From positions 1-59,728 of the IMG/VR virus record IMGVR_UViG_3300042914_003096: a DNA stretch of 59,728 nucleotides; one strand, 5' to 3'. The notes beneath the pieces were generated by a model, which made no database searches, had not been told where the DNA came from, and was given only the letters and a program-made list of their open reading frames with translations. A program made the translations under genes and the position numbers. This document shows positions 6,046-33,148 of this stretch, piece by piece. The first letter of the stretch is position 1. Every line of letters starts with the position of its first letter. Source of the stretch: a virus. Its lineage: Duplodnaviria > Caudoviricetes.

Positions 6046-6403
6046 AACTTTGGAAGAAAAAAAAACATATACGATACCAAAAAACATCATTGATTTTTTT
6101 GAAAAAAAATACAATGAGTATCCTTGTATTACCCAAACACCAAATGTAGTTTATGGGGCCATCGAACAATTAAATAAAAAAAATAAAATACTTTGGTATA
6201 ACAATTTATTTAATGGTTCTGAAACAATCATTAAAGAAGCTATAATTGATTTTAGTACAAATTTTAAAACAATGGTTTTTGTGTCAAATGTTGAAAATGA
6301 AAGAGTTTATCGACTTTTTATATTATCCACTACAGAAAATAAATTTAATGTTGATATTTTAATTAAAGGATTAAATAAATTTTACACAATAGATTTAGTA
6401 TGA
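6032..6403 (+). CDS. Hypothetical protein
   Basis: ATG at 6032 overlaps the upstream gene end; coupled to the next gene. Confidence 0.55.
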   Translation: MTYLRTLEEKKTYTIPKNIIDFFEKKYNEYPCITQTPNVVYGAIEQLNKKNKILWYNNLFNGSETIIKEAIIDFSTNFKTMVFVSNVENERVYRLFILSTTENKFNVDILIKGLNKFYTIDLV

Positions 6404-6687
6404 AGGTCGTGGTTTTGTATTCAATGAAGGGTTGCCCTTTTTGTGAAATGATCAAAGAAGAATTTGATAAAGAAAATATTTTATTTTTAGAAAGAGATAT
6501 TGAAGAATATGAAGAAGAATATGATGAATTTGTAAATGCAACAGATAATGAGTATGTTCCATCTATGATTCTTTTAGATCTTGACAAAAATGATGAAGCG
6601 ACCAATGTTAAATTGATCGCTCCCGAAAGAGATTTTGAAGATATATACGAAGGAGTTAAGATTGTTAAAAAATATCTATCAGAGTAA
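6400..6687 (+). CDS. Glutaredoxin
   Basis: YSMKGCPFC active site and cis-Pro YVPS motif. Confidence 0.85.
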   Translation: MKVVVLYSMKGCPFCEMIKEEFDKENILFLERDIEEYEEEYDEFVNATDNEYVPSMILLDLDKNDEATNVKLIAPERDFEDIYEGVKIVKKYLSE

Positions 6688-15489: not shown

Positions 15490-16410
15490 ATAGGCCGACC
15501 GAAAGGTTGACACACATAAAAAAAGTGAATTAACACCTCCCTTTCTTTAAGTGTTTAAATTATTAGGTCAATGGGCCGTGTATGGTCCATCCACTTCGGT
15601 GGCTTCTAACCTTCGGGTTAGTTGAAAATAAACTACGAAAGTAGGATAAAGTGAATCAGAAGTGTAACTGATTTGCGTCTTGGGAAACCGAGGTCGAGTA
15701 CACAAGCGGGATACCGTTTAATCTTTAGTACCGAGGGCGACGCTGTAGGGAAAGTGGTTAGATGATTGGGCGATGTGGGTCGTCTGATTGAGGTGGGAAC
15801 ACCAATAGGAATAACCCGTAGGAATTTTGCAAAAAATGTGGTTATCCAATCATATTATTGCGAGTTCCAATATTAAAGGAGACTTAAAACCGAAAGGTAT
15901 GTTGATGTACAGGTGGTGCTGTTATTAACCTTGACCGTTCCCCACCAAGGGATTGATCACGAAGTAGTCTTAAAATATGGAGATGGGGACATTTCAGAGA
16001 GTAGTTGAGTATCGACTCGTTCAAAAGATGGGTTGGCTCGTGGGCGGACCACTACTTTCACAATCCACGACACATAACTTATGGAAACTATTAATTCCCA
16101 AATTAAAAAGAGCATTAAGGAAAAGTGTCCGTCAGGTTTGAATGAAAGGTGACTACATAGTAATGAGCCGTTCATTGCACACAAAGATCCCAAGTCGATG
16201 TGTAATTATCCGAAAAACCTTTAGTCCCGCAAGGACGAACTGGGGAGGCATCCTCGGAAAGAGTCAAGTAAGGTGAGAGTAGTTCAAACCTCAAGGAGTG
16301 GTTCACCTAAATAACCGTCACTGAGAAATACTTCTCAAAAGGAAGTGGATAAGAGTAGAATAAATAATGACTCTAAAGGTTCTCAATAAAACGTGTAATC
16401 TCAGCGTTCT
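15490..16410 (+). ncRNA. Large structured non-coding RNA, ~900 nt (GOLLD-like candidate); ends approximate
   Basis: No credible ORF, raised GC, many tetraloop hairpins (CCAC-TTCG-GTGG, AACC-TTCG-GGTT, CTAC-GAAA-GTAG, ACC-GAAA-GGT, GTCC-CGCAA-GGAC); own promoter and terminator. Confidence 0.7.
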
Positions 16411-22175: not shown

Positions 22176-22600
22176 TGAAAAAGATAATTAAACTAACAGA
22201 ATCAGAACTTATTAATTTAATTAAAAGTGTGATTAAAGAAGAAAAATATTCTGAAGAAGATTTAACTTATGTTCATCCGTATTCTGGTAAAGAATGTAAA
22301 ATAAAAATTGCAAGAAACAAATTAACCGATAGAAAATTTTCTGAATACGGTGCGGTTTTGGTGTGTGATGTTTATGATAATGGAAATGAAATGGTAATTG
22401 CTGAAATTCCAGGTACAGGATCAGATCCACAATATGTTAATGATTTAATATGTGATAATATTGAAAAAGTAATATCTTTTTTAGATCATATATTTGAAGG
22501 TGAAAAAGAATATATTAGTGAAGATGTTGATAGTAGAAGATGGGATGTAATAGAAGATCCTGTTGTTTGTAGATCTGATAAATATTTTAATGAAGAATAA
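22175..22600 (+). CDS. LTESDL-leader family protein
   Basis: MKKIIKLTESELINLIKSVIKEE. Confidence 0.7.
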   Translation: MKKIIKLTESELINLIKSVIKEEKYSEEDLTYVHPYSGKECKIKIARNKLTDRKFSEYGAVLVCDVYDNGNEMVIAEIPGTGSDPQYVNDLICDNIEKVISFLDHIFEGEKEYISEDVDSRRWDVIEDPVVCRSDKYFNEE

Positions 22601-22603
22601 AAA

Positions 22604-22723
22604 ATGATAAAAATAATATTAATAATCTTTACAATTTCAACTTTAGTTTCTTGTAAAACATCAGGTCACGGTTGTGATGCTTATGGACAAGTAAAACAAA
22701 AAGAAATTAAAAAAATAAGTTAA
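22604..22723 (+). CDS. 39-aa lipoprotein, CDAYG type (not in ORF track)
   Basis: MIKIILIIFTISTLVSCKTSGHGCDAYGQVKQKEIKKIS; lipobox LVSC; paralog at 42949. Confidence 0.7.
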   Translation: MIKIILIIFTISTLVSCKTSGHGCDAYGQVKQKEIKKIS

Positions 22724-22736
22724 TAAAAATATTAAT

Positions 22737-23027
22737 ATGAAAAAAGTAATAAGATTAACGGAATCTGATTTAACAAGAATTGTTAAACGAATTATAAAGG
22801 AAAGTGAAGATGATATGGGTCCTTTATCAGAATTTACTAATGAAGAATTGGAAGAAATTAAATATAAGGTAATTAGATATTTACAACCAGGTTTTTTTGA
22901 TGAATGGGAAGCGGAAAATTATTTATTGTATAATGTTTCGGGTGGTAATAAACATCTTTATAATTCATTGGTTGAGTGGTTAGAACAAAATGGTGTAGAA
23001 TCATATCATCTTAAAAAAATAAAATAA
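22737..23027 (+). CDS. LTESDL-leader family protein
   Basis: MKKVIRLTESDLTRIVKRIIKE. Confidence 0.7.
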   Translation: MKKVIRLTESDLTRIVKRIIKESEDDMGPLSEFTNEELEEIKYKVIRYLQPGFFDEWEAENYLLYNVSGGNKHLYNSLVEWLEQNGVESYHLKKIK

Positions 23028-23030
23028 CAC

Positions 23031-23100
23031 TTGTCAAATAAAAAAAAATACTTATATTTGTAGAAGAAAATTGAACTTTTAGTAAAAACGATATATTTAT
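23031..23100 (+). promoter_or_regulatory. Tandem promoters (host-type plus ATATTTAT type) for tRNA array 1
   Basis: TTG at 23031 with TATATTTG at 23053-23060; ATATTTAT at 23093-23100. Confidence 0.7.
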
Positions 23101-23106
23101 AACGAA

Positions 23107-23217
23107 ATGAAAACACAAATGAAACATATGAACTTTAACACCCCGTGTCAGAATTGGGTCAAGTCGTATATTACGCTTAGTAATCTTCGGTGTCTTTCAT
23201 TTAATTGTGTGATGTAA
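23107..23217 (+). CDS. Putative attenuator leader peptide 1 (36 aa)
   Basis: MKTQMKHMNFNTPCQNWVKSYITLSNLRCLSFNCVM; run of G/C-ending codons unusual for this genome; 3' part is complementary to the terminator 5' arm. Confidence 0.7.
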   Translation: MKTQMKHMNFNTPCQNWVKSYITLSNLRCLSFNCVM

Positions 23218-23274
23218 CGTATCATCAAATATATATAACAAATGAAAGACCCGAACCAAAAGTTCGGGTTTTTT
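23186..23274 (+). promoter_or_regulatory. Antiterminator/terminator switch 1
   Basis: TTCGG(T)GTCTTTCATTT (23186-23202) pairs with AAATGAAAGACCCGAA (23240-23255); mutually exclusive terminator ACCCGAAC-caaaa-GTTCGGGT plus T run (23249-23274). Confidence 0.8.
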
Positions 23275-23284
23275 GTTTTACATT

Positions 23285-23356
23285 GGTCTCTTAGTTTAAC
23301 AGGAAAAATACGACTCTTGTAAAGTTGAGTTGTCGGGTCAGTTCCGACAGGGACCT
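23285..23356 (+). tRNA. tRNA-Thr(UGU), atypical T loop
   Basis: Acceptor GGTCTCT/AGGGACC; CGACT-CTTGTAA-AGTTG. Confidence 0.7.
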
Positions 23357-23368
23357 CAAAAAGAAAAA

Positions 23369-23385
23369 GTTCTTTGACATATTGG
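23369..23385 (+). promoter_or_regulatory. boxA-like antitermination element
   Basis: GTTCTTTGACATATTGG, identical copy at 27981; resembles rrn boxA. Confidence 0.55.
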
Positions 23386-23393
23386 CTTCATTA

Positions 23394-23477
23394 GGAGAGA
23401 TAATCACAGCGGCCTGTGATCCCGTCTTGAAAACGGTGAGTACCGAAAGGTATGGGGATCGACACCTCATCTCTCCT
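23394..23477 (+). tRNA. tRNA-Ser(UGA)
   Basis: GGAGAGA/TCTCTCC; CCGT-CTTGAAA-ACGG; long variable arm TACC-GAAA-GGTA. Confidence 0.8.
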
Positions 23478-23485
23478 CTGTAAAT

Positions 23486-23573
23486 TGCGGGGTAGACGAA
23501 TTAGGCAAAGTCACCAGGTTTTGACCCTGGAGGTAAATTACCATTGGAGGTTCGAGTCCTGTCTACCCTACAA
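23486..23573 (+). tRNA. tRNA-Gln(UUG), atypical (extra variable arm, irregular acceptor/T junction)
   Basis: CCAGG-TTTTGAC-CCTGG; GGTTCGAGTCC. Confidence 0.6.
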
Positions 23574-23575
23574 AA

Positions 23576-23649
23576 GTCTCCGTAGCTTAATCGGGAAAGC
23601 ACCATACTTTTAATATGGGGAGAGTCGGATCGTAACCGGCCGGGGGACA
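23576..23649 (+). tRNA. tRNA-Lys(UUU)
   Basis: CCATA-CTTTTAA-TATGG; D arm GCTTAATCGGGAAAGC; T arm GTCGG-ATCGTAA-CCGGC. Confidence 0.75.
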
Positions 23650-23716
23650 AAAAAAATTAGTAAAAAAGAACGCAATATACCAAAAAATGGTTACTTTTGT
23701 TCTGAAAAACTAAAAA

Positions 23717-23787
23717 GCCCCAATGGCGTAATGGGAGCGTGGTAGTATTACAAACTATCGGTGGTGGTTCAAATCCATCTTGGGGTA
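23717..23787 (+). tRNA. tRNA-Val(UAC)
   Basis: GCCCCAA/TTGGGGT; GTAGT-ATTACAA-ACTAT; GGTTCAAATCC. Confidence 0.8.
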
Positions 23788-23797
23788 CAAAAAATAA

Positions 23798-23870
23798 GGG
23801 AGTATCGGCAGGGTCCTGATCGTGTCTGTAAAACATCGTCTTGGTGGTTCGATTCCATCTGCTCCCACCA
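23798..23870 (+). tRNA. tRNA-Tyr(GUA), atypical (odd D arm, short variable loop); encodes CCA
   Basis: GGGAGTA/TGCTCCC-A-CCA; TGT-CTGTAAA-ACA. Confidence 0.65.
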
Positions 23871-23877
23871 AAAAATA

Positions 23878-23950
23878 GCTCACGTAGCTTAATTGGGAAA
23901 GCACTTGACTGATATTCAAGAGATAATCGGATCGTAACCGGTCGTGAGCA
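23878..23950 (+). tRNA. tRNA-Ile(GAU)
   Basis: GCTCACG/CGTGAGC; CTTGA-CTGATAT-TCAAG. Confidence 0.8.
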
Positions 23951-23955
23951 CAAAA

Positions 23956-24041
23956 GGAAGGTAAACCTTGATGGTGATAGGGTCCGCCTGCTAAGCGAGA
24001 TGTACCCGTAAGGGTATTTGGTTCGATTCCAATGTCTTCCT
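23956..24041 (+). tRNA. tRNA-Ser(GCU)
   Basis: GGAAGGT/GTCTTCC; CGC-CTGCTAA-GCG; variable arm TACCC-GTAA-GGGTA. Confidence 0.75.
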
Positions 24042-24045
24042 CAAC

Positions 24046-24114
24046 TCCCGTGTGATCAGGGATCAAAGTTGGCTCATATCCGACTTTAGAGTGGTTCGAT
24101 ACCACTACACGGGA
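24046..24114 (+). tRNA. tRNA with CAU anticodon (Met or Ile2), shortened D arm
   Basis: TCCCGTGT/ACACGGGA; GTTGG-CTCATAT-CCGAC; AGTGG-TTCGATA-CCACT. Confidence 0.6.
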
Positions 24115-24120
24115 CAACAT

Positions 24121-24194
24121 GGTGTATGTAGCTCAGTTGGGAGAGTGTCGGTTTGTGGATCCGAAGGTCGTGGGATCGTGACCCACCATACACA
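24121..24194 (+). tRNA. tRNA-His(GUG)
   Basis: G-1, GTGTATG/CATACAC; TCGG-tTTGTGGAt-CCGA. Confidence 0.8.
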
Positions 24195-24290
24195 CAAAAT
24201 AGTTCACAACGGACAAGGCTTAGGCGTATGAAACAGGACGGTGGGATGCGAGTGGTTGACCAGAACTATTTTTTTGATTATTGTTGTTTT

Positions 24291-24803
24291 ATGAAATTGT
24301 TTATTCCCTTAATTTTACTTTTTTTTGTTAGAGGGCTTTCACAACCATATACAAACACAATTGATGATTTTAAATTGTTCATTCAAAAACAAAAAAATAT
24401 CAAATTAGAAAAGGGACCATATAAGATTCCTGAAGATACTAATCAATACTTTTTTGTTGGAAAAATGATTGATGGGTCCTATTACTTTTTTTATAAACAT
24501 AAAATATCATCGTTTAAGTTAAATGACACTTATGAATATAAAAGTGATGATGAGTTTAATAAAAAACTACAGGAGTTAAAGATCACAGAGCAAAAAGATT
24601 CTGTTATTATTGTAAAAAAAGAAAATGAAAAAGTTTATCGGGATCAGACAATTATAATTTATGATACTGAAAACAAAAAAACAATTAAACAAAAAAGTAT
24701 TAAAGTTCCGTATGCTGAAAGAATTGATAACAAGTGGGTATATTTAAATCCAGCAAGGATCATATGGTTAGATCAAAACGGAAATGAAATAAAAAGAAAA
24801 TAA
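24291..24803 (+). CDS. Secreted hypothetical protein
   Basis: Likely start MKLFIPLILLFFVRGLSQ; the upstream extension in the ORF track overlaps tRNA-His. Confidence 0.6.
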   Translation: MKLFIPLILLFFVRGLSQPYTNTIDDFKLFIQKQKNIKLEKGPYKIPEDTNQYFFVGKMIDGSYYFFYKHKISSFKLNDTYEYKSDDEFNKKLQELKITEQKDSVIIVKKENEKVYRDQTIIIYDTENKKTIKQKSIKVPYAERIDNKWVYLNPARIIWLDQNGNEIKRK

Positions 24804-24840
24804 TATCCGATGTCGGTCCCGAGCTAGGTCGGGCACTACT

Positions 24841-24912
24841 GCAAGACTAGTGTAATGGCTAACACGGATGATTCCAAACCATCAAATTTCTGCTCGACTC
24901 GGAAGTTTTGCG
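24841..24912 (+). tRNA. tRNA-Trp(CCA)
   Basis: GCAAGAC/GTTTTGC-G; GATG-aTTCCAAAc-CATC; atypical T loop CTCGACT. Confidence 0.7.
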
Positions 24913-24958
24913 CAAATTTTAATTTTGCCAATTAAAAAACTTTTTGTATATTTGTGAT

Positions 24959-25459
24959 ATGAAAAAACAATTACCATACGAGTCAACAGGAAATGCAATT
25001 AAAGGTTATACAGAATCCTCAATCGCGAAAGGAGAATCAGGGGATTGTGTTGTAAGAGCATTTGCTTCTTCATTTGATGTTTCATATGATTTTGCACATA
25101 AGTTCGTTGCGGAAGAATTTAAAAGACAACCAAGAAGAGGAACGTATTTCACGGCATCCAAAATGGTTTCACTTTCTGAAGGACTAATTAAAGTTAATGG
25201 TAAAAAGATCTTTCCTGTTGGTACTCCGTCTAAAAGTGTTTTATCTCCTTTTTCTTTGTCTTACAAAGTTAAAGTAAAAGGTGTTGAAAAAGAAAGACAA
25301 ATGACTGTTGGTACTTTTGCAAAGAAAAACCCTAAAGGAACTTTCTTTGTGTTAGTTAAAGGTCACGCTTTCACAATCAAAGATGGTGTTGTGGTAGGAA
25401 ACCCAGAAGACGCAATCAAACTTAAAAGACCTATGAGGGCGGCATTTGAAATTAAATAA
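24959..25459 (+). CDS. Conserved phage protein, possible papain-like Cys/His fold
   Basis: GDCVVRAF...GHAFTIKDG; TATATTTG promoter immediately upstream. Confidence 0.5.
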   Translation: MKKQLPYESTGNAIKGYTESSIAKGESGDCVVRAFASSFDVSYDFAHKFVAEEFKRQPRRGTYFTASKMVSLSEGLIKVNGKKIFPVGTPSKSVLSPFSLSYKVKVKGVEKERQMTVGTFAKKNPKGTFFVLVKGHAFTIKDGVVVGNPEDAIKLKRPMRAAFEIK

Positions 25460-25514
25460 AAAACTATGGTGAACAACTCTCTATGGTTCCACAAACAAAT
25501 AAAAAATAGAAATT

Positions 25515-25970
25515 ATGAACAGGGTTTTTAGAAAGGTTACCGGAGAATCTGTTCCTGATATTGTAAAACACACATTAGACATTGTAAATGACTGCCCCTG
25601 GATTGAAGTACATATTGGAACTGACTCACAAAACCATAGAAGAAGTACCATTTATGTTACGGCAATTGCTTATAGATTTGGGAACCGTGGCGTTCATTAC
25701 ATCTATCACAAACAAAAGGTAAAAAAGATCCGAGATAAATGGACACGTTTATGGAATGAAGCTGATTATTCAATTGAAGTTGCAGAGTGGTTGACCCAAA
25801 AGGTAAATGTAAAGGTGGAAATAGATTTAGATTACAACAGCGACGAAAAACACTTCAGCTCAAAATTGGTCCAACCTGCTGTTGGGTGGGCAACATCTTT
25901 GGGTTATAAAGCAAATGTTAAACCACATAACCAAATTGCAACAAGGGCGGCAGACCACCACTGCCGCTAA
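25515..25970 (+). CDS. RNase H-like YkuK (DUF458) family protein
   Basis: HIGTDSQ, EADYS, IDLDYN and AADH acidic motifs. Confidence 0.8.
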   Translation: MNRVFRKVTGESVPDIVKHTLDIVNDCPWIEVHIGTDSQNHRRSTIYVTAIAYRFGNRGVHYIYHKQKVKKIRDKWTRLWNEADYSIEVAEWLTQKVNVKVEIDLDYNSDEKHFSSKLVQPAVGWATSLGYKANVKPHNQIATRAADHHCR

Positions 25971-25975
25971 TTTAT

Positions 25976-26048
25976 GAGAGGTTGTCCGAGCGGCGTTAGG
26001 TCTATGGTTGCAACCCATAGTACGGGGGTTCGAGTCCCTCACCTCTCT
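25976..26048 (+). tRNA. tRNA-Cys(GCA)
   Basis: GAGAGGT/ACCTCTC-T (U73); TATGG-TTGCAAC-CCATA. Confidence 0.85.
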
Positions 26049-26056
26049 CAACATAT

Positions 26057-26130
26057 GCCCCTATGGTGGAATAGGTATACACGTCAGATTTAGGATCTGA
26101 ATTTTGCAGGTTCGAGTCCTGCTAGGGGTA
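26057..26130 (+). tRNA. tRNA-Leu(UAG) lacking the long variable arm
   Basis: GCCCCTA/TAGGGGT-A; TCAGA-TTTAGGA-TCTGA; 5-nt variable loop. Confidence 0.8.
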
Positions 26131-26241
26131 CTAAACTTTTTTTAATATCGATATATTTATAATAAAAATATTGATATGAAAAAAATTATAAGATTAACAG
26201 AATCAGATTTAACAAGGATTGTTAAACGTGTGATTAAAGAA
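26109..26241 (+). repeat. Direct repeat copy 1 (tRNA-Leu 3' end, promoter and 22 leader codons)
   Basis: 133 nt, near-identical to 26787-26919. Confidence 0.85.
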
Positions 26242-26739
26242 CAATCAACACCAACACCTAAACTTGAGGATTATGAAAAAACATTTTTAATAAAGTTATT
26301 AACTGACATAAAAAATATATTATCGGATATTTTTAAAAGAACCTACGATGAAAATTTAGATGAAGGAGACAGAGTACAAGTATTAACTATGTCAATTTTT
26401 GATGACTACATAAAAAAAGTGAGTGACTTGAATTACAAAATTAGACCGTCACAATTAAAATGGTCTGATTTATATGGTAGACTTAGCTCAAGTGATAGGT
26501 TAACTATATTGGAACCTAATAGGGCTAAAAGAATTTGGACATTTATCGCCCCTTACCTCATTTCAAATTCCGATGTTAGTGACAATAATATTTTTATAGA
26601 TTTATTTAAGGGTGAACTAAAAAATAATCTAAAAGAGTTTCTTAGTCGTCTAAAGTCTTATAATAAATATATTATACAGACAATCAGTTTACCAAAAAAA
26701 CCTTTACAACAAATACCAACAAATGACGAAACCCCCTGA
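26176..26739 (+). CDS. LTESDL-leader family protein
   Basis: MKKIIRLTESDLTRIVKRVIKE. Confidence 0.75.
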   Translation: MKKIIRLTESDLTRIVKRVIKEQSTPTPKLEDYEKTFLIKLLTDIKNILSDIFKRTYDENLDEGDRVQVLTMSIFDDYIKKVSDLNYKIRPSQLKWSDLYGRLSSSDRLTILEPNRAKRIWTFIAPYLISNSDVSDNNIFIDLFKGELKNNLKEFLSRLKSYNKYIIQTISLPKKPLQQIPTNDETP

Positions 26740-26786
26740 ACTAACAATTAAAAAATCACAAAAAAACTTATTAAAGAATCTTTGAT

Positions 26787-26919
26787 GGTTCAAATCCTGC
26801 TAGGGGTACTAAACTTTTTTTAATATCGATATATTTATAATAAAAATATTGATATGAAAAAAGTAATTAGATTAACAGAATCTGATTTAACAAGAATTGT
26901 TAAACGTGTAATTAAAGAA
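26787..26919 (+). repeat. Direct repeat copy 2
   Basis: GGTTCAAATCCTGCTAGGGGTACTAAAC...ATTAAAGAA. Confidence 0.85.
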
Positions 26920-27126
26920 ACTCATCCATTAGAAGGTGGTCCTGGTTATATGACTAAACACCATATTGGTGTTCTTAAACGACTTATATCTGATTTAGAA
27001 AATGAAGATACAAGTAATCTATCGGATGAAAATTTAAGAGGATATTTTAAAACACTTAATCATCTTAAGAATGCACTTAAAGGGGCAAATGTTAAATATA
27101 AAGAAGAAACAGGTGAAGATATATAA
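26854..27126 (+). CDS. LTESDL-leader family protein
   Basis: MKKVIRLTESDLTRIVKRVIKE. Confidence 0.75.
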   Translation: MKKVIRLTESDLTRIVKRVIKETHPLEGGPGYMTKHHIGVLKRLISDLENEDTSNLSDENLRGYFKTLNHLKNALKGANVKYKEETGEDI

Positions 27127-27142
27127 AAGGTTTTAAATAAAA

Positions 27143-27469
27143 ATGAAAAAAGTTATTAGACTTACCGAATCTGATCTTGTAAGAATCGTTAAACGTGTAA
27201 TTAAAGAATCTAAATTCCGATCTCAATTCGGTGATATGGGTTATTGGATTGACGAAAAAGGTAATTGGGTGGAATTTGATAAGGATCTGGAAAAAACCGG
27301 ATATTATGATTTTGAATATGAACCATTCACCGATGTTGAAGATTATGAAGAATTACCTGACGATCTAAAAGAAAAACTATTTCCTGATAGTAAAATTGGT
27401 AGGGAATTTTTTAACAAGTACAAAGAAAAACATGGTAAGTTTCAGTACTCAAGAAAAAAAGATATATAG
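27143..27469 (+). CDS. LTESDL-leader family protein
   Basis: MKKVIRLTESDLVRIVKRVIKE. Confidence 0.75.
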   Translation: MKKVIRLTESDLVRIVKRVIKESKFRSQFGDMGYWIDEKGNWVEFDKDLEKTGYYDFEYEPFTDVEDYEELPDDLKEKLFPDSKIGREFFNKYKEKHGKFQYSRKKDI

Positions 27470-27470
27470 T

Positions 27471-27794
27471 ATGAAAAAAGTAATTAGATTAACAGAAAGA
27501 GATTTAACTCGTATTGTTAAACGAGTGTTTAAAGAAAATGAAGAGGATATGATTCGTATCCCAAGAGAATATAAAGGTATCAGAGCGGAAGTTGGATCAA
27601 AGGCGTCACCTCAAGACATTATTGATATGTATAACGAAGTGGTTGCTTCTGAAGGAGACACACCTTTTTTAGTTGAATATTCAGAATACGGAACTGAAGG
27701 TATGTTTTATAATGAAGAAGGTGATGAAATTCCTGTTGATGCTATTCTTGATGAATTAAACTATGGATTAGTTGGAGAAGAAGAAGATTTTTAA
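27471..27794 (+). CDS. LTESDL-leader family protein
   Basis: Start corrected to ATG 27471: MKKVIRLTERDLTRIVKRVFKE. Confidence 0.75.
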   Translation: MKKVIRLTERDLTRIVKRVFKENEEDMIRIPREYKGIRAEVGSKASPQDIIDMYNEVVASEGDTPFLVEYSEYGTEGMFYNEEGDEIPVDAILDELNYGLVGEEEDF

Positions 27795-27853
27795 AAAAAC
27801 TTGACACTTTTGAAAAGTTGTATATATTTATAACAAAAATAATAAAAACGCAA

Positions 27854-27928
27854 ATGAAAAATTTACATATTATATCTTTAAGAGGGTTGGCGGGTGCTGA
27901 GGATACTTTCTGTATGGAGATGGTATGA
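27854..27928 (+). CDS. Putative attenuator leader peptide 2 (24 aa)
   Basis: MKNLHIISLRGLAGAEDTFCMEMV; last codons complementary to the terminator 5' arm; ATATATTTATAAC upstream as for leader 1. Confidence 0.7.
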   Translation: MKNLHIISLRGLAGAEDTFCMEMV

Positions 27929-27980
27929 TAATTTAACATATAAATTTTTCAAACCCATCTCCAAAAGAGGTGGGTTTTTT
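27915..27980 (+). promoter_or_regulatory. Antiterminator/terminator switch 2
   Basis: TGGAGATGG (27915-27923) pairs with CCATCTCCA (27955-27963); alternative terminator AAACCCATCTC-caaaa-GAGGTGGGTTT plus T run. Confidence 0.75.
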
Positions 27981-27997
27981 GTTCTTTGACATATTGG
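27981..27997 (+). promoter_or_regulatory. boxA-like antitermination element
   Basis: GTTCTTTGACATATTGG, identical to 23369; variant GTTCATTGACATATT at ~29092. Confidence 0.55.
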
Positions 27998-28028
27998 TAA
28001 ATTAAAAATTAATTAGTAACTTTGTTTT

Positions 28029-28196
28029 ATGAAAGCAAAAGATAAAAATATCGTACATAATTTGATCATCGGATCCCAGAGACAAAAACAAGTTGATCAG
28101 GGATTCTTTGATGGTAGATTTGTTTCAAGAGTTTATGATTCAAATAAGAATTATACTCGAAAAGAAAAACATAAGAAAAATTATTTGGTATATTAA
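28029..28196 (+). CDS. 55-aa ArfA-like ribosome rescue factor candidate (not in ORF track)
   Basis: DGRFVSRVYDSNKNYTRKEKHKK versus E. coli ArfA [24 protein letters not shown]. Confidence 0.5.
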   Translation: MKAKDKNIVHNLIIGSQRQKQVDQGFFDGRFVSRVYDSNKNYTRKEKHKKNYLVY

Positions 28197-28311
28197 AATA
28201 ATTTTATATCTTTGTTATACACATAAACCTAAGTACCCATACCGCTGACGGTGGGCTAAGTAAGATACAATTTCGTACCGCGGGAAGTAGAATGCTTAGG
28301 AGTGTGTTTAT

Positions 28312-28411
28312 AGTCAGGTGGCGGAATTGGTAACAGTTTATGGGCTATTAAGAATGCTGGTAACGGTAGATAGAGAGATTCTTAATGCAGGTTCAAGTCC
28401 TGTCCTGGCTG
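28312..28411 (+). ncRNA. Leu-type tRNA-like RNA with the anticodon arm replaced
   Basis: AGTCAGG/CCTGGCT, TGGCGGAATTGGTA, T arm GCAGG-TTCAAGT-CCTGT; middle is an ATTAAGAAT/ATTCTTAAT stem with no canonical 7-nt anticodon loop. Confidence 0.6.
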
Positions 28412-28670
28412 CACGTTGAGGGTTCATCACCCCATAGTGTGCCCCACACGATGAGAAACGAAGTGATGTTTCGTAGGGGAACGTACTTTGTCGTATAGGG
28501 AGAACGACTAAGAAAGTAAGTTGTACTAAGTACAGTGGAAACACACACCTCAACAGAGATGGACTGAAAGTTCGCTTGACTGGGAAAGACGAAATGAACT
28601 ATTCCTAACCCACCTTTATGGTGGGGACAACCATAACACCTGTAAGCTGGATAAATGAGGGTGTTACTTT

Positions 28671-28784
28671 AGTCAGGTGGCGGAATTGGTAGACGCAAAG
28701 ATGTTGTGAGTTGGTAGGTAATAACTACTTGGATAGTATCCACACTAGAACTCTCAAATACAGGTTCAAATCCTGTCCTGACTA
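28671..28784 (+). ncRNA. Leu-type tRNA-like RNA with the anticodon arm replaced by a branched domain
   Basis: AGTCAGG/CCTGACT-A, D arm GGCGGAATTGGTAGACGC, T arm ACAGG-TTCAAAT-CCTGT; insert GAGTT...AACTC encloses two hairpins. Confidence 0.65.
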
Positions 28785-28813
28785 CAAAAAAAAATAATTT
28801 TATATAAATTAAT

Positions 28814-28990
28814 ATGGGAAAGGAAATATTTGAAGAATTGGAAAATGAAGTTAACCAAGTATTAGGTTACCTTCCAATTGATAGAGATTTGGTAAAGGAT
28901 TTGATTGATAAAGCAAAAGAAAAGATGAATCAAAAATTTGAGGAACTAAAGGATTTTGATACTTGGAAGGAATGGAAAAATAAAAAGTAA
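28814..28990 (+). CDS. 58-aa hypothetical protein (not in ORF track)
   Basis: MGKEIFEELENEVNQVLGY...LKDFDTWKEWKNKK. Confidence 0.55.
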   Translation: MGKEIFEELENEVNQVLGYLPIDRDLVKDLIDKAKEKMNQKFEELKDFDTWKEWKNKK

Positions 28991-29311
28991 AAAAAGATTT
29001 GGTAGATTAAAATATTCTACTTATATTTGTAAGACAAACAACGGGGGTAGGAAGTTTAGAGATGAGTGTCCTACTCCCGTAAAAAGAAGAAGTTCATTGA
29101 CATATTAAATAAAGGGATAAGGTAACCACGAACCCACTGGTAATAGGCCTTTCTTGAGATGGAATGCAAGATAGAATGTAACTCCTGCCTTATCCCCTTT
29201 TTAAAAATATTGTGGTTGTAAGAAAAGGGAAACTCGTTAAGTACATTAACCTGTTAACGCAAAATGGTGAAACGAGAGTGTGTGTTAACTACTGAACTAC
29301 ATTATTAAAAT

Positions 29312-29366
29312 AGTTAGGTGGAGGGTTATAGGTGCTCCCACACAGGTTCAAGTCCTGTCCTAACTA
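29312..29366 (+). ncRNA. Minimal tRNA-like RNA (acceptor stem, one hairpin, T arm)
   Basis: AGTTAGG/CCTAACT-A; GGAG...CTCC; ACAGG-TTCAAGT-CCTGT. Confidence 0.55.
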
Positions 29367-29371
29367 CACAT

Positions 29372-29442
29372 TGCGGTTTAGTGTAATTGGTAGCACACGG
29401 GGCTCATAACCCTGAGGCCAGGTTCGAGTCCTGAATCCGCTA
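29372..29442 (+). tRNA. Initiator tRNA-fMet(CAU)
   Basis: CGGGG-CTCATAA-CCCTG with three G-C pairs; 1:72 mismatch. Confidence 0.75.
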
Positions 29443-29586
29443 CAACACGGATGAATAGGTGGAAGGGCCTTTCCTGAAAGATGGCTAGCTAGGCCCGTGT
29501 TCATCCTGAGCCAACCAAGCTTTACCACGATACGGGTTCATACCTGTGGGTTGGGGGTGACGATCAGGAAAGACTGATAAATTTAT

Positions 29587-29666
29587 GCTGACGTACCGGT
29601 GGATGCTTATATCATCTATGCCCGTAGAGGAAGTTTAAAACGTTGGTTCGATCCCAACCGTCAGTA
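29587..29666 (+). tRNA. D-armless tRNA-like RNA with UAU (Ile) anticodon and long variable region
   Basis: GCTGACG/CGTCAGT-A; 7-nt linker in place of the D arm; GGATG-CTTATAT-CATCT; GTTGG-TTCGATC-CCAAC. Confidence 0.55.
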
Positions 29667-29761
29667 CAAAAAGATCAACTAGTCACTGTATCCAACCAGT
29701 GGGTGTCAGTAAGTATTCTGAGCGACGTTTAAATCCTGATAGCAATGTTGATTTTTATTTT

Positions 29762-29833
29762 GCGGGTATCGTATAATGGTTATTACTCCACACTTCCAAT
29801 GTGGAGATGAGTGTTCGATTCATTCTACCCGCA
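29762..29833 (+). tRNA. tRNA-Gly(UCC)
   Basis: GCGGGTA/TACCCGC; CCACA-CTTCCAA-TGTGG. Confidence 0.85.
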
Positions 29834-29952
29834 CAAAAACGCTTTAAAGGATTGTGTACAGATCCAGAGTGGGGAGCGGGTCCCACATTTAATTTGATTT
29901 TAAAATAAAATATTGGTATATTTTTTTAAACTAAAAAAACAAATATGAAACA

Positions 29953-30165
29953 ATGAAAATTAAATTAGGATTGTGGTGGTTGGTAGGCACCACAATTATT
30001 TACATCTACATTATGAATCTATTTTTCAATTACGTGATTAATAGGGAAGTTGATGAAATCCTACAAATCGGTGCAAGTTTTATAGCTTTAATTTACACTG
30101 CATTTCAAATAAAGCAAATAGTAAAAGAAGTAATAAATTTATTTAAAAAAGAAGAAAAAGAATGA
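29953..30165 (+). CDS. Small two-TM membrane protein
   Basis: Two hydrophobic segments; coupled to the SPFH gene. Confidence 0.6.
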   Translation: MKIKLGLWWLVGTTIIYIYIMNLFFNYVINREVDEILQIGASFIALIYTAFQIKQIVKEVINLFKKEEKE

Positions 30166-31064
30166 TTAGTGTAATTGTAACTGTAGTATTTTTGATCGTA
30201 GCAGGTGTTATGATCTTTAAATCAAGAATTGATGATGATAACGCGGCACTTGCAAAAGGGATTGTCGTTGGTGTTGTTGGTTTGGTAGTTGGTTTGATCC
30301 AACCTTATTCCCTTGAAAGAATTGATGCTGGACATAAAGGTATTGTTGTTAACCTTTCAGGATCTGAAAGAGGTGTATCTTCATACCAATACAAAACAGG
30401 TTGGGTTGTTTATAACACTTGGTTCACACAAGTTTTGGAGTTCCCAACTTATCAACAACATATTGAATATGATGATCAAATGGTAATAACAAAAGGAGGA
30501 TTTTCTGCAACAATTAAACCAAGTTTTAACTATTCATTAAAACCTGAAGCTATTGGTGATATGTTTGAAAATTTAAGATTGGGAGTTAAAGAAATTGAAC
30601 AAGGTTGGCTTAAAAATGCGATCATCGGGGCTGTTAATGACGTATCAAACACTTGGGAAGTGGATAGCATTTTTGGTCACAGACAGGCGTTTGAATCAAG
30701 TATCGTTGTTGAATGTAATAAAAGACTTGAAAAATGGTTTAACGTTTCACAACTTAGAACAAATATCACACCACCTGAAGCGTTACAAGAGGCAATTATT
30801 GCAAAAACCAAATCTATCCAACAAGCCGAAGCATCCGAACAACAAGCACTTGCGGCAATTGCGGATGGTAAAAGAAAGATCGCAGTTGCAAGAGCTGACT
30901 CGGCTGAAACTATCATTAATGCGAAGGCCGCCGCACTTGCAATGAAACTAAAACAACAAGAATTAACACCACTATATGTTGATTATGTTAAGGCTAACGC
31001 TTGGGATGGTAAACTTCCATCAACAATGACAAGTGGATCTGGAACATTTTTGAACATTAAGTAA
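30162..31064 (+). CDS. SPFH/Band 7/prohibitin family membrane protein
   Basis: N-terminal TM segments, RIDAGHKGIVV, Ala/Glu-rich coiled coil, C-terminal WDGKLP. Confidence 0.85.
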   Translation: MISVIVTVVFLIVAGVMIFKSRIDDDNAALAKGIVVGVVGLVVGLIQPYSLERIDAGHKGIVVNLSGSERGVSSYQYKTGWVVYNTWFTQVLEFPTYQQHIEYDDQMVITKGGFSATIKPSFNYSLKPEAIGDMFENLRLGVKEIEQGWLKNAIIGAVNDVSNTWEVDSIFGHRQAFESSIVVECNKRLEKWFNVSQLRTNITPPEALQEAIIAKTKSIQQAEASEQQALAAIADGKRKIAVARADSAETIINAKAAALAMKLKQQELTPLYVDYVKANAWDGKLPSTMTSGSGTFLNIK

Positions 31065-31176
31065 AAAAAGATTTGGTAGTTTGAAATAAACTACCTATCT
31101 TTGTAAGACAAACAAGATGAGTTTCCCAACACTAAATTGGGACAAGTGGTACACAAGTCCACGACTCATCTTAAAT

Positions 31177-31251
31177 GGTCCGTTCGTCTAGCTGGTTTAG
31201 GACACTTCCCTTTCACGGAAGAGATCACGGGTTCAAATCCCGTACGGACTT
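31177..31251 (+). tRNA. tRNA-Glu(UUC)
   Basis: GGTCCGT/ACGGACT; CTTCC-CTTTCAC-GGAAG; GGTTCAAATCC. Confidence 0.9.
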
Positions 31252-31311
31252 CAATTGGACGAACAACATTGCACACAAGTTGTACCTCTACGGTTTTAAA
31301 GTGTGTTTATT

Positions 31312-31382
31312 GGTCCATTGGTGTAATAGTAACATTTGTCCCTGTCACGGACAAGCCCTCGGAGCGTAACCGGGATGGACCG
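31312..31382 (+). tRNA. tRNA-Asp(GUC)
   Basis: GGTCCAT/ATGGACC-G; TGTCC-CTGTCAC-GGACA; atypical T loop AGCGTAA. Confidence 0.8.
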
Positions 31383-31539
31383 CAATAATTAACTATGATG
31401 CAAGTACTTTTAATATTTTTTATTGGTTATCTTTTTCTTATTAGAAAAAGAACTGATCGTAGATATTAATTAATAATAGGTCCAGTTTCAGGTTGGAAAA
31501 GAGGTAGAAAGTTAAAATAAACAAATAAAAATTTTAGTT

Positions 31540-31722
31540 ATGAAAATGTTGATAACAATGAAAACCTTTATTACCAATATTTTCAAACACAAATGTGAAA
31601 ATGAAAGTAGGGTAATTGGAATTTATGGTGGCGAAAAAGTGAATGGAAAAGTCACCGACGTTACAATCAAATACAGATGTAGAGTATGTAACAACGTTTA
31701 TGAAGTGTGCCAAGTGTTATAA
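31540..31722 (+). CDS. Small Cys-rich hypothetical protein
   Basis: HKC...CRVC pattern. Confidence 0.45.
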   Translation: MKMLITMKTFITNIFKHKCENESRVIGIYGGEKVNGKVTDVTIKYRCRVCNNVYEVCQVL

Positions 31723-31734
31723 TCATAAACGGTA

Positions 31735-31804
31735 GGTCATTGAGCGTGTTGGAGAACGCACCCAGGTCATGGGAGAATAACAGGTTCGATTCCTGTAATG
31801 ACTT
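31735..31804 (+). ncRNA. tRNA-like RNA with a shrunken anticodon arm (4-bp stem, 5-nt loop)
   Basis: GGTCATT/AATGACT; D stem GCGT/ACGC; CCCA-GGTCA-TGGG; ACAGG-TTCGATT-CCTGT. Confidence 0.55.
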
Positions 31805-31813
31805 CAAAAATTT

Positions 31814-32084
31814 GCACCCGTAGCTCAGCTGGAATAGAGCAACTGCCTCAAATAGGGGGTGTTATATCAGAAATGGTATAATAGAATTCATCAAATTCGG
31901 GGAAGCCTTTAAAATGGTAATCCCGAGCCAAGCCCGAAAGGGAAGGTGTAGAGACTTGACGGTGAACACCTAAGTTGTAAAAAATAAGGTGATGAGAAAG
32001 TCCAGACCACAAACAGAAATGGCAGTGAAAACTGTAGTGGGAAGTCTAAGCAGTAGGTCCTTGGTTCGAATCCAAGCGGGTGTA
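31814..32084 (+). tRNA. tRNA-Arg(UCU) interrupted by a group I intron (exons 31814-31848 and 32045-32084)
   Basis: Joined exons give ACTGC-CT|TCTAA-GCAGT; acceptor GCACCCG/CGGGTGT. Confidence 0.85.
31849..32044 (+). ncRNA. Compact self-splicing group I intron (IC3-like), 196 nt, no ORF
   Basis: U.G pair in P1 (GCCUC/GGGGU), AAATTCGGGGAA, AATCCCGAGC, GTAGAGACT, AAAGTCC, terminal G. Confidence 0.85.
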
Positions 32085-32265
32085 CAAACAGGTAGGTGGA
32101 TTGTGTTACACACCCCACTGACGAGTGGGACGGTCCTAATAATAAGTTACGAAACGATATATCATTGAGCGATTCGGATCGGGTAACAAATATGGGCTAA
32201 GGGGGTTAGATTCCCCCACCTTGTCGATATTGACAAATATAAATTATTATACTACTATTACTTAA

Positions 32266-32338
32266 AGTCGGGTAGCTCAGTTGGTAGAGCAATCTCAAAA
32301 AAAGAGACGTGTCATTGGTTCAATCCCTTTCCCGACTT
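32266..32338 (+). pseudogene. Phe-like tRNA with an all-A anticodon loop (pseudo-tRNA or decoy)
   Basis: AGTCGGG/CCCGACT; TAGCTCAGTTGGTAGAGC; TCTC-AAAAAAA-GAGA; weak T stem. Confidence 0.5.
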
Positions 32339-32419
32339 TTTTATATTTTTTTTCATTTACCATTTGGCAGATTAAAAATTTTGCCTATCTTTGTAATGTA
32401 ATCATAAAACAAAGACACT

Positions 32420-33148
32420 ATGGACATCACAACAAAAGTTAGAAACTACAACGGTAAAAATTCTTTCATCTTGAAAATGAAAGATGCAGTTCAAAAATAC
32501 GGATCGCTAACCGCAAAACAGGCGGCGGCGACTGAAAAGATCCTTAATGCTGTTGTTGAGGCTAAATCTGTTGAAATGTCTGACGATATGAAAAAAATCG
32601 CAGCGTACGAGGGTAAAAACTCTTTTGTTTTGGAATTGAAGGGTAAACTTGAAAAGTACGGGAGCCTTACAGACAAACAAGTGTCGGCAGCACTTTCCCA
32701 AATCCAAAAAGAAGAAGACAAGGCCGCTACAGTTCATATGAACATCCCGGCTGTTGGTGATACAATCAAGATCGGTCGTAAGATAGGTCAGACACTTAAA
32801 GAAACTTACGGGTTGAAATTTAACCCAATCCTTTTGGATGTTACTAAGGTTCTTGCAATTTCACCTAAAGCTGTTAAATTCGCAGCAAAACTTACAATCA
32901 AAAGAGGATCCGTTTGTACTTGTTGTATGAAAACTTTAACAGACGAATTTTCAATGTTGACAGGACTTGGTAAGATTTGTGCTTCACACGTAGGAGTTCC
33001 TTACATCACTGACAAGTCACAAGCAGAATCGTTCCGTATCGAATATATGAAACGAGTTGATGAAATCGGTGAAATGGAACTATGGGTTCCTAAATCCCAA
33101 ATCAAAACTTGGGAAGGTACGGCAGACATCTTGTTGAAGATGGTATAA
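32420..33148 (+). CDS. Protein with two internal KYGSLTxKQ repeats and a DUF6011-like zinc finger
   Basis: NSF...KYGSLT.KQ twice; CTCCMKTLTD...GLGKICA; host-type promoter upstream. Confidence 0.6.
   Translation: MDITTKVRNYNGKNSFILKMKDAVQKYGSLTAKQAAATEKILNAVVEAKSVEMSDDMKKIAAYEGKNSFVLELKGKLEKYGSLTDKQVSAALSQIQKEEDKAATVHMNIPAVGDTIKIGRKIGQTLKETYGLKFNPILLDVTKVLAISPKAVKFAAKLTIKRGSVCTCCMKTLTDEFSMLTGLGKICASHVGVPYITDKSQAESFRIEYMKRVDEIGEMELWVPKSQIKTWEGTADILLKMV

Follow-up and report, generated by a model that had tools for sequence, protein, structure and literature searches.

How a phage might control the tRNA genes that it carries is the question raised by the window, a stretch of 59,728 bases that makes up the entire IMG/VR record IMGVR_UViG_3300042914_003096. 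Phage tRNAs are usually discussed by which ones are carried, and to our knowledge the control of phage tRNA genes is essentially unknown. CheckV estimated a completeness of ~21% and, therefore, the window is a fragment of a very large (jumbo) phage. Close relatives were not found in the annotated phage collection, where the only matches were tRNA-sized. Two tRNA arrays are encoded, array 1 at 23285-26131 and array 2 at 28312-32339 (both, like all module elements below, on the + strand), and each is headed by a module consisting of a host-type promoter, a short leader open reading frame (ORF) and an intrinsic terminator. The layout, conservation and codon content of these modules suggest that they are probably ribosome-mediated transcription attenuators which sense the supply of the tRNAs they control.

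Leader modules at the heads of tRNA arrays

The initial annotation had proposed that both arrays start with the same layout, and all of its elements (promoter motif, leader ORF, terminator with a CAAAA loop and a 17-mer) were indeed found in place. Module 1 begins with the host-type promoter P1 (23031-23060; TTG at 23031-23033, 19-nt spacer, TATATTTG at 23053-23060), which is kept in the relatives L120, L123, L152 and L155. It is followed by a second promoter-like element at 23071-23103 (TTG at 23071-23073, 18-nt spacer, TATATTTA at 23092-23099) that includes a 13-mer at 23091-23103. Leader ORF 1 (23107-23217) comprises 36 codons plus TAA and encodes the peptide MKTQMKHMNFNTPCQNWVKSYITLSNLRCLSFNCVM, which contains no G, A, E or D. 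Its codons 27-32 hold the putative antiterminator strand CTTCGGTGTCTTTCATT (23185-23201), complementary to the 5' arm of the terminator and also to the ORF start region AAAUGAAAACAC. Terminator 1 (23242-23279; stem ATGAAAGACCCGAAC / GTTCGGGTTTTTTGT, loop CAAAA, U-tract; hairpin -17.6 kcal/mol) starts 24 nt past the stop codon of leader 1, and tRNA-Thr begins a few nt after the U-tract, leaving no room for a promoter. Array 1 contains 13 tRNAs, broken up by three ORFs: Thr-UGU, Ser-UGA, Gln, Lys, Val, Tyr, Ile-GAU, Ser-GCU, CAU, His, Trp, Cys and Leu-UAG. Ten of them were called by ARAGORN at default settings, and Ser-UGA, Ser-GCU and CAU by relaxed ARAGORN together with matches to the Rfam tRNA clan. 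Thus, both the lack of Gly, Ala, Glu and Asp in leader 1 and the exact list of 13 tRNAs given by the initial annotation were borne out, and all 13 classes have a codon in leader 1.

Module 2 has one promoter (27801-27834; TTG at 27801-27803, 19-nt spacer, TATATTTA at 27823-27830), which includes the 13-mer at 27822-27834. Leader ORF 2 (27854-27931) encodes the 24-codon peptide MKNLHIISLRGLAGAEDTFCMEMV and ends in tandem stops, TGA TAA (ORF 27854-27928). The putative antiterminator strand GGAGATGGT occupies its last three codons (27916-27924), and terminator 2 (about 27951-27980; AAACCCATCTC CAAAA GAGGTGGGTTT plus U-tract; hairpin -14.9 kcal/mol) starts 22 nt past the stop. The CAAAA loop of both terminators is not special. 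Array 2 consists of tRNAs and tRNA-like RNAs and is broken up by ORFs, including one for an SPFH protein. Default ARAGORN called Met-CAU, Gly-UCC, Glu-UUC, Asp-GUC and a tRNA with the anticodon AAA; Arg-UCU (31814-32085), found in the intron mode of ARAGORN, is interrupted in its anticodon loop by a ~196-nt group I intron (Rfam RF00028, 80 bits, 31839-32026). These six agree with the earlier list for array 2, but its 'Ile-UAU' and 'Leu-like' members turned out to be odd tRNA-like RNAs: the UAU RNA at 29587-29667 has its anticodon arm (GATG-CTTATAT-CATC, near 29600) at an unusual position, and the Leu-like ones are Rfam tRNA matches of 100 nt (28312-28411) and 114 nt (28671-28784). Other odd tRNA-like RNAs lie at 29312-29366 (3' half only), 31735-31805 and 32087-32225, so that such RNAs are confined to the regions 28205-29670 and 31735-32225 of the array, and RNAs resembling those of array 2 are also present in L162 and L165.

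The systematic test covered the window and the viral loci L005-L199. With the SPFH protein as query, 110 related viral contigs were found, of which 80 loci were kept; tRNAs are present in 14 of the 80. tRNAs were called with ARAGORN, relaxed calls being accepted only beside default calls, and a hairpin with U-tract was searched for within 400 nt upstream of a tRNA. As leader we took the longest ORF that begins with ATG and whose end falls within a range from 100 nt upstream to 8 nt downstream of the first base of the stem. Of the 55 terminators found, 52 have an ORF of 15-60 codons and no tRNA just upstream; the others are L071:5071 and L087:6326, excluded for a tRNA within 60 nt upstream, and L116:1990, where a gene of 588 codons ends. 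The distance from stop codon to stem is 19-36 nt in every one of the 52 automatic modules, the finder having accepted -8 to 100 nt. Eleven modules missed by the finder were added by hand (leader 2 of the window, both leaders of L120 and L123, and leader 2 of L121, L122, L163, L165, L167 and L168), and L155:6646, an 18-codon ORF ahead of a small hairpin within an array, was removed before counting. The final set comprises 62 leader/array pairs from 49 viral loci with 43 distinct peptides, an array being the same-strand tRNAs up to the next module, a gap of >1.5 kb or the end of the locus. In many modules the first tRNA starts 8-19 nt past the terminator, which leaves no room for a promoter, and therefore this tRNA could be made by read-through only.

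Correspondence between leader codons and array tRNAs

Clustering at 50% peptide identity and a minimum of four tRNA classes reduced the set to 26 non-redundant pairs. In these, the own leader contains a codon for 286 of 310 array tRNA classes (recall 0.923), compared with 0.740 for permuted pairings, and 551 of 807 leader codons find their tRNA class in the array (precision 0.683, against 0.515). Neither observed value was reached in 20,000 permutations, and the result was unchanged after clustering at 80% and at 35% (21 pairs at the latter). As a further control, windows were drawn at random from the long ORFs of these loci (two loci had none and were left out); they gave a summed recall of 199.7 ± 6.4 (maximum 222 in 2000) compared with 277 for the leaders, and 408.7 ± 13.1 matched codons compared with 530. 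The correspondence is confined to the reading frame: recall and precision amounted to 0.923 and 0.683 in frame, 0.674 and 0.498 in the +1 frame, 0.645 and 0.480 in the +2 frame and 0.700 and 0.519 in antisense. Removal of the window's two leader families left 17 pairs with a recall of 0.906 versus 0.786 (p 5e-5), and with default tRNA calls only the recall was 0.937 versus 0.744. A perfect case is the leader L079:1565, which covers 18 classes one to one.

A contrast within single genomes was provided by eight loci with two modules each. Here, the own leader covered its array better than the other leader did in 16 of 16 comparisons, the eight phages being partly related and two of the arrays having a single called class; the precision of leader 1 was better for its own array in 8/8 loci. 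The match of codons and anticodons postulated in the initial annotation therefore holds beyond chance, as seen from the permutations, its frame specificity and this within-phage contrast. In the 14 pairs whose arrays are complete, matches are most frequent at codon positions -16 to -8 from the ORF end (0.79-1.00 matched), with a lower share among the first six and the last seven codons (0.43-0.79); the zone from -16 to -8 fits sensing codons just upstream of the antiterminator strand. The codons are dispersed, with 119 of the 310 array classes represented in the leader by one codon, 101 by two and 66 by three or more. Tandem runs of a regulatory codon, typical of classical attenuators, are not the general pattern, although some phages have them (LR756502, N/L/T-rich). 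The peptide sequences differ between leader families and their composition follows the array.

Homologues of leader 1 were found by blastn in four loci and homologues of leader 2 in seven, and more came from loci with the 17-mer, giving aligned families of 15 leader-1 and 11 leader-2 sequences in which the ORFs remain open. Insertions and deletions within the ORF are of 3 or 6 nt in both families, the exception being a 4-nt alignment gap at a shifted stop, and in the leader-2 family, where the ORF stays in the same alignment columns, they are of 3, 3 or 6 nt. Past the stop codon, they measure 1, 2, 4, 5, 6 or 7 nt. This difference in lengths reads as the signature of a reading frame under selection. 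The middle of peptide 2 is poorly kept in sequence but kept in composition (RGLAGAED, RGLAEAED, LGADLEAGD, IGGDLAEA, LGGTEADTRFRT, IGGTDRTEATT, LLERLERF).

The initial annotation had also expected leader codons to co-vary with array tRNAs in relatives, and they do. In clade C (L163-L168), codons for G, A and D are missing from the leader-2 homologue MKNTNIISLLERLERFSLMEMV, and array 2 consists of Leu-UAA, Glu, Arg-UCU and Met. The leader-1 homologue of this clade, MKTTMTYKQGTVKTVDGKVDSLFYGHGLSYWSC, acquired G and D and stands before an array with Gly, Asp, Val, Thr, Lys and Ser. Leader 2 includes an AGA codon in genomes whose array 2 has Arg-UCU (window, L120, L079, L071, L163) and lacks it in L152 and L155, in which Arg-UCU sits upstream of leader 1. 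Array 1 of L152 (Thr, Gln, Ser-UGA, Pro, Lys, Val, Tyr, Asn, Ile, Ser-GCU, Met, His, Arg-ACG, Trp, Phe, Cys and Leu-UAG) represents exactly the 16 amino acids of leader 1, again without G, A, E and D. The genes for Pro, Asn, Phe-GAA and Arg-ACG are missing from the window, yet their codons are retained in its leader 1; Ala-UGC is present in array 2 of L152, L079, L093 and L071. No Pro, Asn or Ala tRNA was found within the window, as the initial annotation had cautioned. Since relatives carry Pro, Asn, Phe, Arg and Ala tRNAs, the window phage has either lost them or keeps them in the unsequenced part of its genome.

The same design was found in independent records. The cultured Maribacter phage Panino (PP540027.1) has modules at 5454-5600 and 6490-6611 of the locus L320, with leaders near 25316-25396 and 26337-26411 in the numbering of the record. 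Its CDS0063, annotated as a 31-amino-acid 'hypothetical protein' with a doubtful TTG start, contains a promoter and the ORF MKTQRLHQELEQPTNIGRDFYGVDGY; this ORF, starting MKTQRLHQELEQP, is followed by a terminator and, 9 nt on, by tRNAs Pro, Glu, Gln, His, Leu, Leu and Arg. The unannotated ORF MRAATGIAIIGRTKDKPLGRISVL (starting MRAATGIAIIGRTK) and its terminator precede Ala, Lys, Ile and Gly. In the cyanophage Leptolyngbya phage Lbo-JY46 (L322; modules at 5391-5522 and 6120-6247) the leader MKITRQHTQFWFPTGTGLGML (starting MKITRQHTQFWFPTGT) precedes Pro, Thr, Phe, Gln and His, and an L-rich leader precedes two Leu tRNAs. In the 642-kb uncultured megaphage LR756502 (L323, 9122-9284) an N/L/T/V-rich leader stands before Asn, Leu, Val, Ile and Thr. 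Each of these five modules covers 100% of its array classes, with a joint p for recall and matched codons of <= 0.006 in four of the five and of 0.12 for the two-tRNA Leu array. A locus of a Ruegeria phage had no module. With modules in a cyanophage and a 642-kb phage, the design extends beyond the phages of Bacteroidota. It is also present in the chromosome of a Mucilaginibacter sp. (L326, G002:C1 about 5159326-5159455), where the 19-codon leader MKTTICIQCPSPILIYQRR, containing three ATA, two Cys and two Pro codons, and a terminator lie 9 nt before tRNAs Pro-UGG, Ile-UAU and Cys-GCA. This was one of 30 host tRNA loci from two Bacteroidota genomes and the design was seen in none of the other 29; in this small sample host tRNA operons in general do not seem to use it.

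Alternative RNA structures and the proposed switch

An attenuator requires that the leader offers the terminator an alternative partner. For 28 modules, the best pairing that the 5' arm of the terminator can form with the leader was scored against 200 dinucleotide shuffles; p was <= 0.05 in 14 of the 28 (~1.4 expected), with a mean z of -2.25, and the partner mostly lies -30 to +1 nt from the stop, i.e. in the last 3-10 codons. Leader 1 of the window is among the strongest: CTTCGGTGTCTTTCATT (23185-23201) pairs with ATGAAAGACCCGAAC at -18.3 kcal/mol (z -6.2, reached by 0/200 shuffles), comparable with the -17.6 kcal/mol of terminator 1. In the minimum free energy structure the same strand is paired with the ORF start, and these helices would allow a trp-like 1:2 / 2:3 / 3:4 scheme. 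In the leader-2 family, 86.4% of the cells of the antiterminator helix are paired, compared with 42-72% when it is slid. Its covariation score of 0.218 versus 0.145, reached by 6 of 500 shuffles, is modest and about as good as that of the terminator itself, and two pairs are changed on both sides, e.g. GAAGAGGG with CCCTCTTC in L079. Among relatives, modest covariation was thus seen in the antiterminator helix, but no significant covariation in the opposing anti-antiterminator (see below).

The effect of a ribosome was estimated with a footprint model in which the RNA was folded before the 3' arm exists and 28 nt around the A site were masked. The mean probability that the terminator 5' arm is sequestered was ~0.80 with the ribosome at least 12 codons before the stop, 0.38-0.53 with the ribosome in the last nine codons and 0.71 without a ribosome. 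Clean switching was found for L094, L105, L027, L080, L112 and L165.

From these parts the following mechanism can be proposed. The host-type promoter would give rise to a short transcript encoding a leader peptide of 24-36 codons, which we infer to be translated. The terminator, 19-36 nt past the stop codon, could form unless its 5' arm pairs with the last leader codons, the antiterminator. The middle of the leader would present one to a few codons for each downstream tRNA species. When all are read fast, the ribosome would reach the ORF end and occlude or unwind the antiterminator, the terminator would form and the array would stay off. If a sampled tRNA is scarce, the ribosome would stall upstream, the antiterminator would form and RNA polymerase would read through. 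The polymerase would then meet the 17-mer, a boxA-like element described below (right behind the terminator for array 2, after the first tRNA for array 1), which might recruit NusB/NusE-type factors and thus keep transcription of the long untranslated array processive. The outcome would be a supply-on-demand feedback loop for phage tRNAs, possibly triggered by tRNA depletion caused by the phage itself, by a mismatch in codon usage or by host anticodon nucleases. RNA libraries yielded one contig of 116 nt (run X1) which spans 23238-23353, across terminator 1 into tRNA-Thr, and one of 286 nt from a relative (run X10; 19 differences, 5 gaps) which spans 23128-23386, likewise across the terminator into tRNA-Thr. 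The best runs contained <=0.17 of the sampled words, as contigs only, which may derive from DNA and have no transcript ends; nothing was concluded from them.

Several observations speak against this mechanism or limit it. Nine codons of leader 1 (Asn x5, Phe x2, Pro and Arg-CGG) have no tRNA in the window, and neither do 10 of 23 codons of leader 2 have one in array 2, even if the odd tRNA-like RNAs are counted. In the two-module phages the precision of leader 2 was better for its own array in only 4/8 loci, partly because array 2 is poorly called, short and cut by the 1.5-kb gap rule. Most sampled tRNAs are represented by one or two codons, for which classical theory predicts a weak sensitivity per tRNA. 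The pairing of the terminator 5' arm with the end of the leader ORF, claimed for both modules, held for leader 1, but that of leader 2 (GGAGATGGT, 27916-27924, with AAACCCATCTC; -10.3 kcal/mol, z -1.3, p 0.115) is not significant alone, and a significant antiterminator is likewise lacking in 14 of the 28 modules, including leader-1 relatives of the L087/L079 type (z +0.73 and -0.14). The anti-antiterminator of the leader-2 family (helix 1:2, codons 5-9) is 84.3% paired, with insignificant covariation (54/500 shuffles). In the footprint model the antiterminator strand of the window's leader 1 is not masked by a ribosome on the stop codon (0.7) and, therefore, the trp-like three-helix scheme is needed there. 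A module stands at the 5' edge of only 24 of 64 distinct tRNA clusters and is internal in 8 more, and the finder detected none at many clusters of other phages, including large ones reached via the 17-mer. Finally, internal host-type promoters, already noted as a caveat in the initial annotation, are present inside both arrays; therefore, an attenuator cannot be the sole control.

Some of these points are shared by other explanations. The hairpins could instead serve in RNA processing or stability, or be leaky terminators of small independent genes, with arrays transcribed constitutively through read-through and internal promoters and with leaders that are small proteins or genes fitted to the phage tRNAs. 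This would agree with the internal promoters, with the edge modules at only 24 of 64 clusters and with the annotation of one Panino leader as a hypothetical protein. We consider it unlikely: a general adaptation of codons would leave unexplained that each leader fits its own array and not the second one in the same phage (16/16), as well as the clustering of matched codons at -16 to -8; the peptides are not conserved between families while their composition tracks the array, and complementarity to the terminator arm is enriched (14/28 against ~1.4). Quite improbable, too, is a switch of opposite sign, in which a ribosome trailing the polymerase suppresses termination, so that the array is made only while translation is healthy and is turned off once tRNAs become scarce. 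Translation-coupled read-through, too, uses a short ORF that ends near a terminator, the sign cannot be read from the sequence by itself, and the footprint model, an equilibrium model, left the antiterminator of the window's leader 1 free with a ribosome on the stop codon. A terminating ribosome covers roughly 12-15 nt, so that direct melting of the terminator is out of its reach from a stop codon 19-36 nt before the stem (52/52). The last codons contain the strand that is complementary to the arm, and a ribosome positioned there would mask the antiterminator and not the terminator, and making fewer tRNAs during a tRNA shortage has no obvious use.

The remaining two explanations concern the origin of the match itself. 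The correspondence is one of triplets to anticodons and does not by itself prove involvement of a ribosome, so codon-like triplets could pair with anticodons directly, in the style of a T-box. Since the triplets lie in one ATG-to-stop frame that is preserved by indels of 3n, and other frames lose the signal, this is very unlikely; an RNA of 70-140 nt would need to bind up to 18-22 different tRNAs, and no T-box or other riboswitch matched at E <= 1 in 22500-33000. For the window alone, where numbers are small, composition bias could be suspected, because a G-poor leader lacks the GNN codons for Gly, Ala, Glu and Asp, and we estimate that ~2% of G-poor random sequences of 36 codons have no GGN, GCN or GAN. 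In view of the permutation, random-window, frame and swap controls with 26 independent-looking pairs and of the five modules in annotated records, chance or composition is extremely improbable as the source of the match.

The boxA-like site, known systems and neighbouring elements

The 13-mer ATATATTTATAAC in the promoters of both modules is exact at 23091-23103 and 27822-27834 and has one-mismatch copies at 26151 and 26829 (4 matches versus 0.74 expected from shuffles). It contains TATATTTA 18-19 nt after a TTG, and TTG..TAnnTTTG, also found in intergenic regions of the window, is what we take to be the Bacteroidota promoter consensus. By this resemblance the 13-mer appears to be a variant of the host-type -7/-33 promoter. 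The one-mismatch copies precede ordinary protein genes at 26176 and 26854. An attenuator-specific role of the 13-mer was rejected, since copies head protein genes in the window and in L125, L153 and L165.

Two exact copies of the 17-mer GTTCTTTGACATATTGG are present, versus 0.04 expected: one at 23369-23385, which precedes tRNA-Ser(UGA) of array 1 by 9 nt, and one at 27981-27997, directly behind terminator 2, where it is kept in all 8 aligned sequences (window and 7 homologues). Exact copies occur in >115 viral contigs of very diverse kinds, nearly always with a tRNA or a structured RNA of another kind 8-15 nt downstream. Its 13-nt core was found in 11 of the 80 SPFH-related loci, all of which have tRNAs, and in 0/66 loci without tRNAs. 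Outside viruses, the 17-mer is present in at least 120 bacterial genome loci, nearly all of Bacteroidota and many on rRNA-sized contigs (~5.5 kb). Rfam matches placed it behind the spacer tRNAs and 81-198 nt before the 23S rRNA in 3/3 loci examined, and the rrn operons of Bacteroidota have the identical element in their 16S-23S spacer. Its core resembles what we take to be the E. coli boxA consensus. Because of the spacer position before 23S and the likeness to E. coli boxA, on which the name boxA for the Bacteroidota element rests, we read the 17-mer as a predicted boxA-like Nus-factor loading site that Bacteroidota phages place before RNA gene arrays. It is an rrn-type boxA-like site and not a part of the sensor. 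Two other identities were rejected: a leader boxA ahead of 16S rRNA, because a 16S 5' end lies within 1200 nt downstream at 0/122 sites, and a sigma-70 type promoter (the 17-mer contains TTGACA), because the sites lie 8-15 nt from tRNAs and have no properly spaced -10 box.

The site suggests that Bacteroidota phages borrow the host rRNA antitermination machinery for RNA gene arrays. In E. coli, boxA is positioned in the rrn operon spacer and NusB-NusE mediates processive antitermination, as described in passages of PMC4807359. Like the boxA elements of rrn operons and of lambda nut, the 17-mer, equal to the Bacteroidota rrn spacer element, precedes structured untranslated RNAs in phages; unlike them, the viral site heads tRNA arrays and stands behind a putatively regulated terminator. 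In many gut-type contigs (L005-L119) the 17-mer precedes conserved structured RNAs other than tRNAs, for example TAAAATGGTGTTTTGGAAGCCGACACGTGC, which is present in >15 contigs. A copy of the motif with 3 mismatches lies near 29091 in array 2.

In classical attenuation, formation of the antiterminator depends on the site at which the ribosome stalls. The modules share with the attenuators of amino-acid operons (trpL, hisL, leuL, pheL, thrL, ilvL) and of pheST (pheM; cf. PMC1183508 and PMC3082878) the short leader ORF, the intrinsic terminator, the alternative antiterminator and codons cognate to what the operon supplies. They differ in that tRNAs are regulated, not enzymes, in the viral setting, and in that one to a few codons each for up to ~20 tRNA classes replace a run of one to three codon kinds; further, the codon set of phage leaders follows the gene content of the array. 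Rfam leader models scored below threshold in 22500-33000 (Phe_leader 30.5 vs 55 bits, Thr_leader 27.4 vs 55, Trp_leader 25.5 vs 41), and membership in these families was rejected because the matches are driven by the terminator. T-box riboswitches also sense tRNA status and choose between terminator and antiterminator, but each binds one uncharged tRNA directly, and the genes under their control are synthetase or amino-acid genes, whereas here the signal is an ORF without T-box match. Phage tRNA arrays have been treated as compensation for host tRNA loss or anticodon nucleases (PMC10264068), and the passages of that paper give a reason why particular tRNAs could become limiting during infection; promoter, terminator, leader or attenuation are not mentioned in it, nor do its passages describe a regulatory leader. 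Neither terminator nor leader is mentioned in the Panino paper (PMC11590407). Our literature search found no account of leader peptides or attenuators for phage tRNA genes, an absence that is unproven because most subscription journals lay outside the search. The logic corresponds to leader-peptide attenuation; the literature found contains no description of the tRNA targets, of a many-input leader whose codons follow the array, of the viral setting or of a coupling to boxA.

In a wider reading, to which we give slightly less than an even chance, the modules represent widespread, so far undescribed 'pan-tRNA' attenuators in phages of Bacteroidota, a cyanophage, a megaphage and one bacterial chromosome, i.e. 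multi-codon probes of the tRNA pool that turn on viral tRNA arrays when needed and provide, during infection, an inducible answer to depletion, including that by anticodon nucleases, and are coupled to a hijacked rrn-type Nus antitermination. If true, this would be the first known attenuator of tRNA genes themselves, with a leader sampling up to ~20 codon classes, and the first leader-peptide attenuator with a many-input sensor. It would link translation stress in the infected cell directly to viral tRNA supply and account for many unannotated or 'hypothetical' mini-ORFs ahead of tRNA arrays. Further, the sequence would reveal which tRNAs a phage expects to run short, and the modules would be natural parts for tRNA-level biosensors. 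A cultured system is available with Maribacter halichondriae and phage Panino.

Some further elements of the window were observed beside the modules. Just 3' of tRNA-His, at 24205-24263 (+), lies a 59-nt element that is 90-93% identical to an unannotated spot in ~55 Streptomyces phages (e.g. Mildred21) and is thus common to phages of unrelated hosts; the stem AATAGTTC/GAACTATT, behind which a T-run lies, encloses the element, and it had no Rfam match at E <= 1. The 3' end of tRNA-Leu(UAG) is duplicated together with a promoter (26100-26180 and 26780-26860), and each copy heads one small gene of a paralogous family. Its members, at 22175, 22737, 26176, 26854, 27143 and 27473, start with MKK(V/I)IRLTESDLTRIVKRVIKE; the two examined (22737, 26176) gave no Pfam match. 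A GOLLD RNA (Rfam RF02032, 333 bits) is located at 15997-16407 (+) and was also found in L120, L152, L153 and L155, beside a phage tmRNA, and a freshwater-1 RNA is present in L153 and L162.

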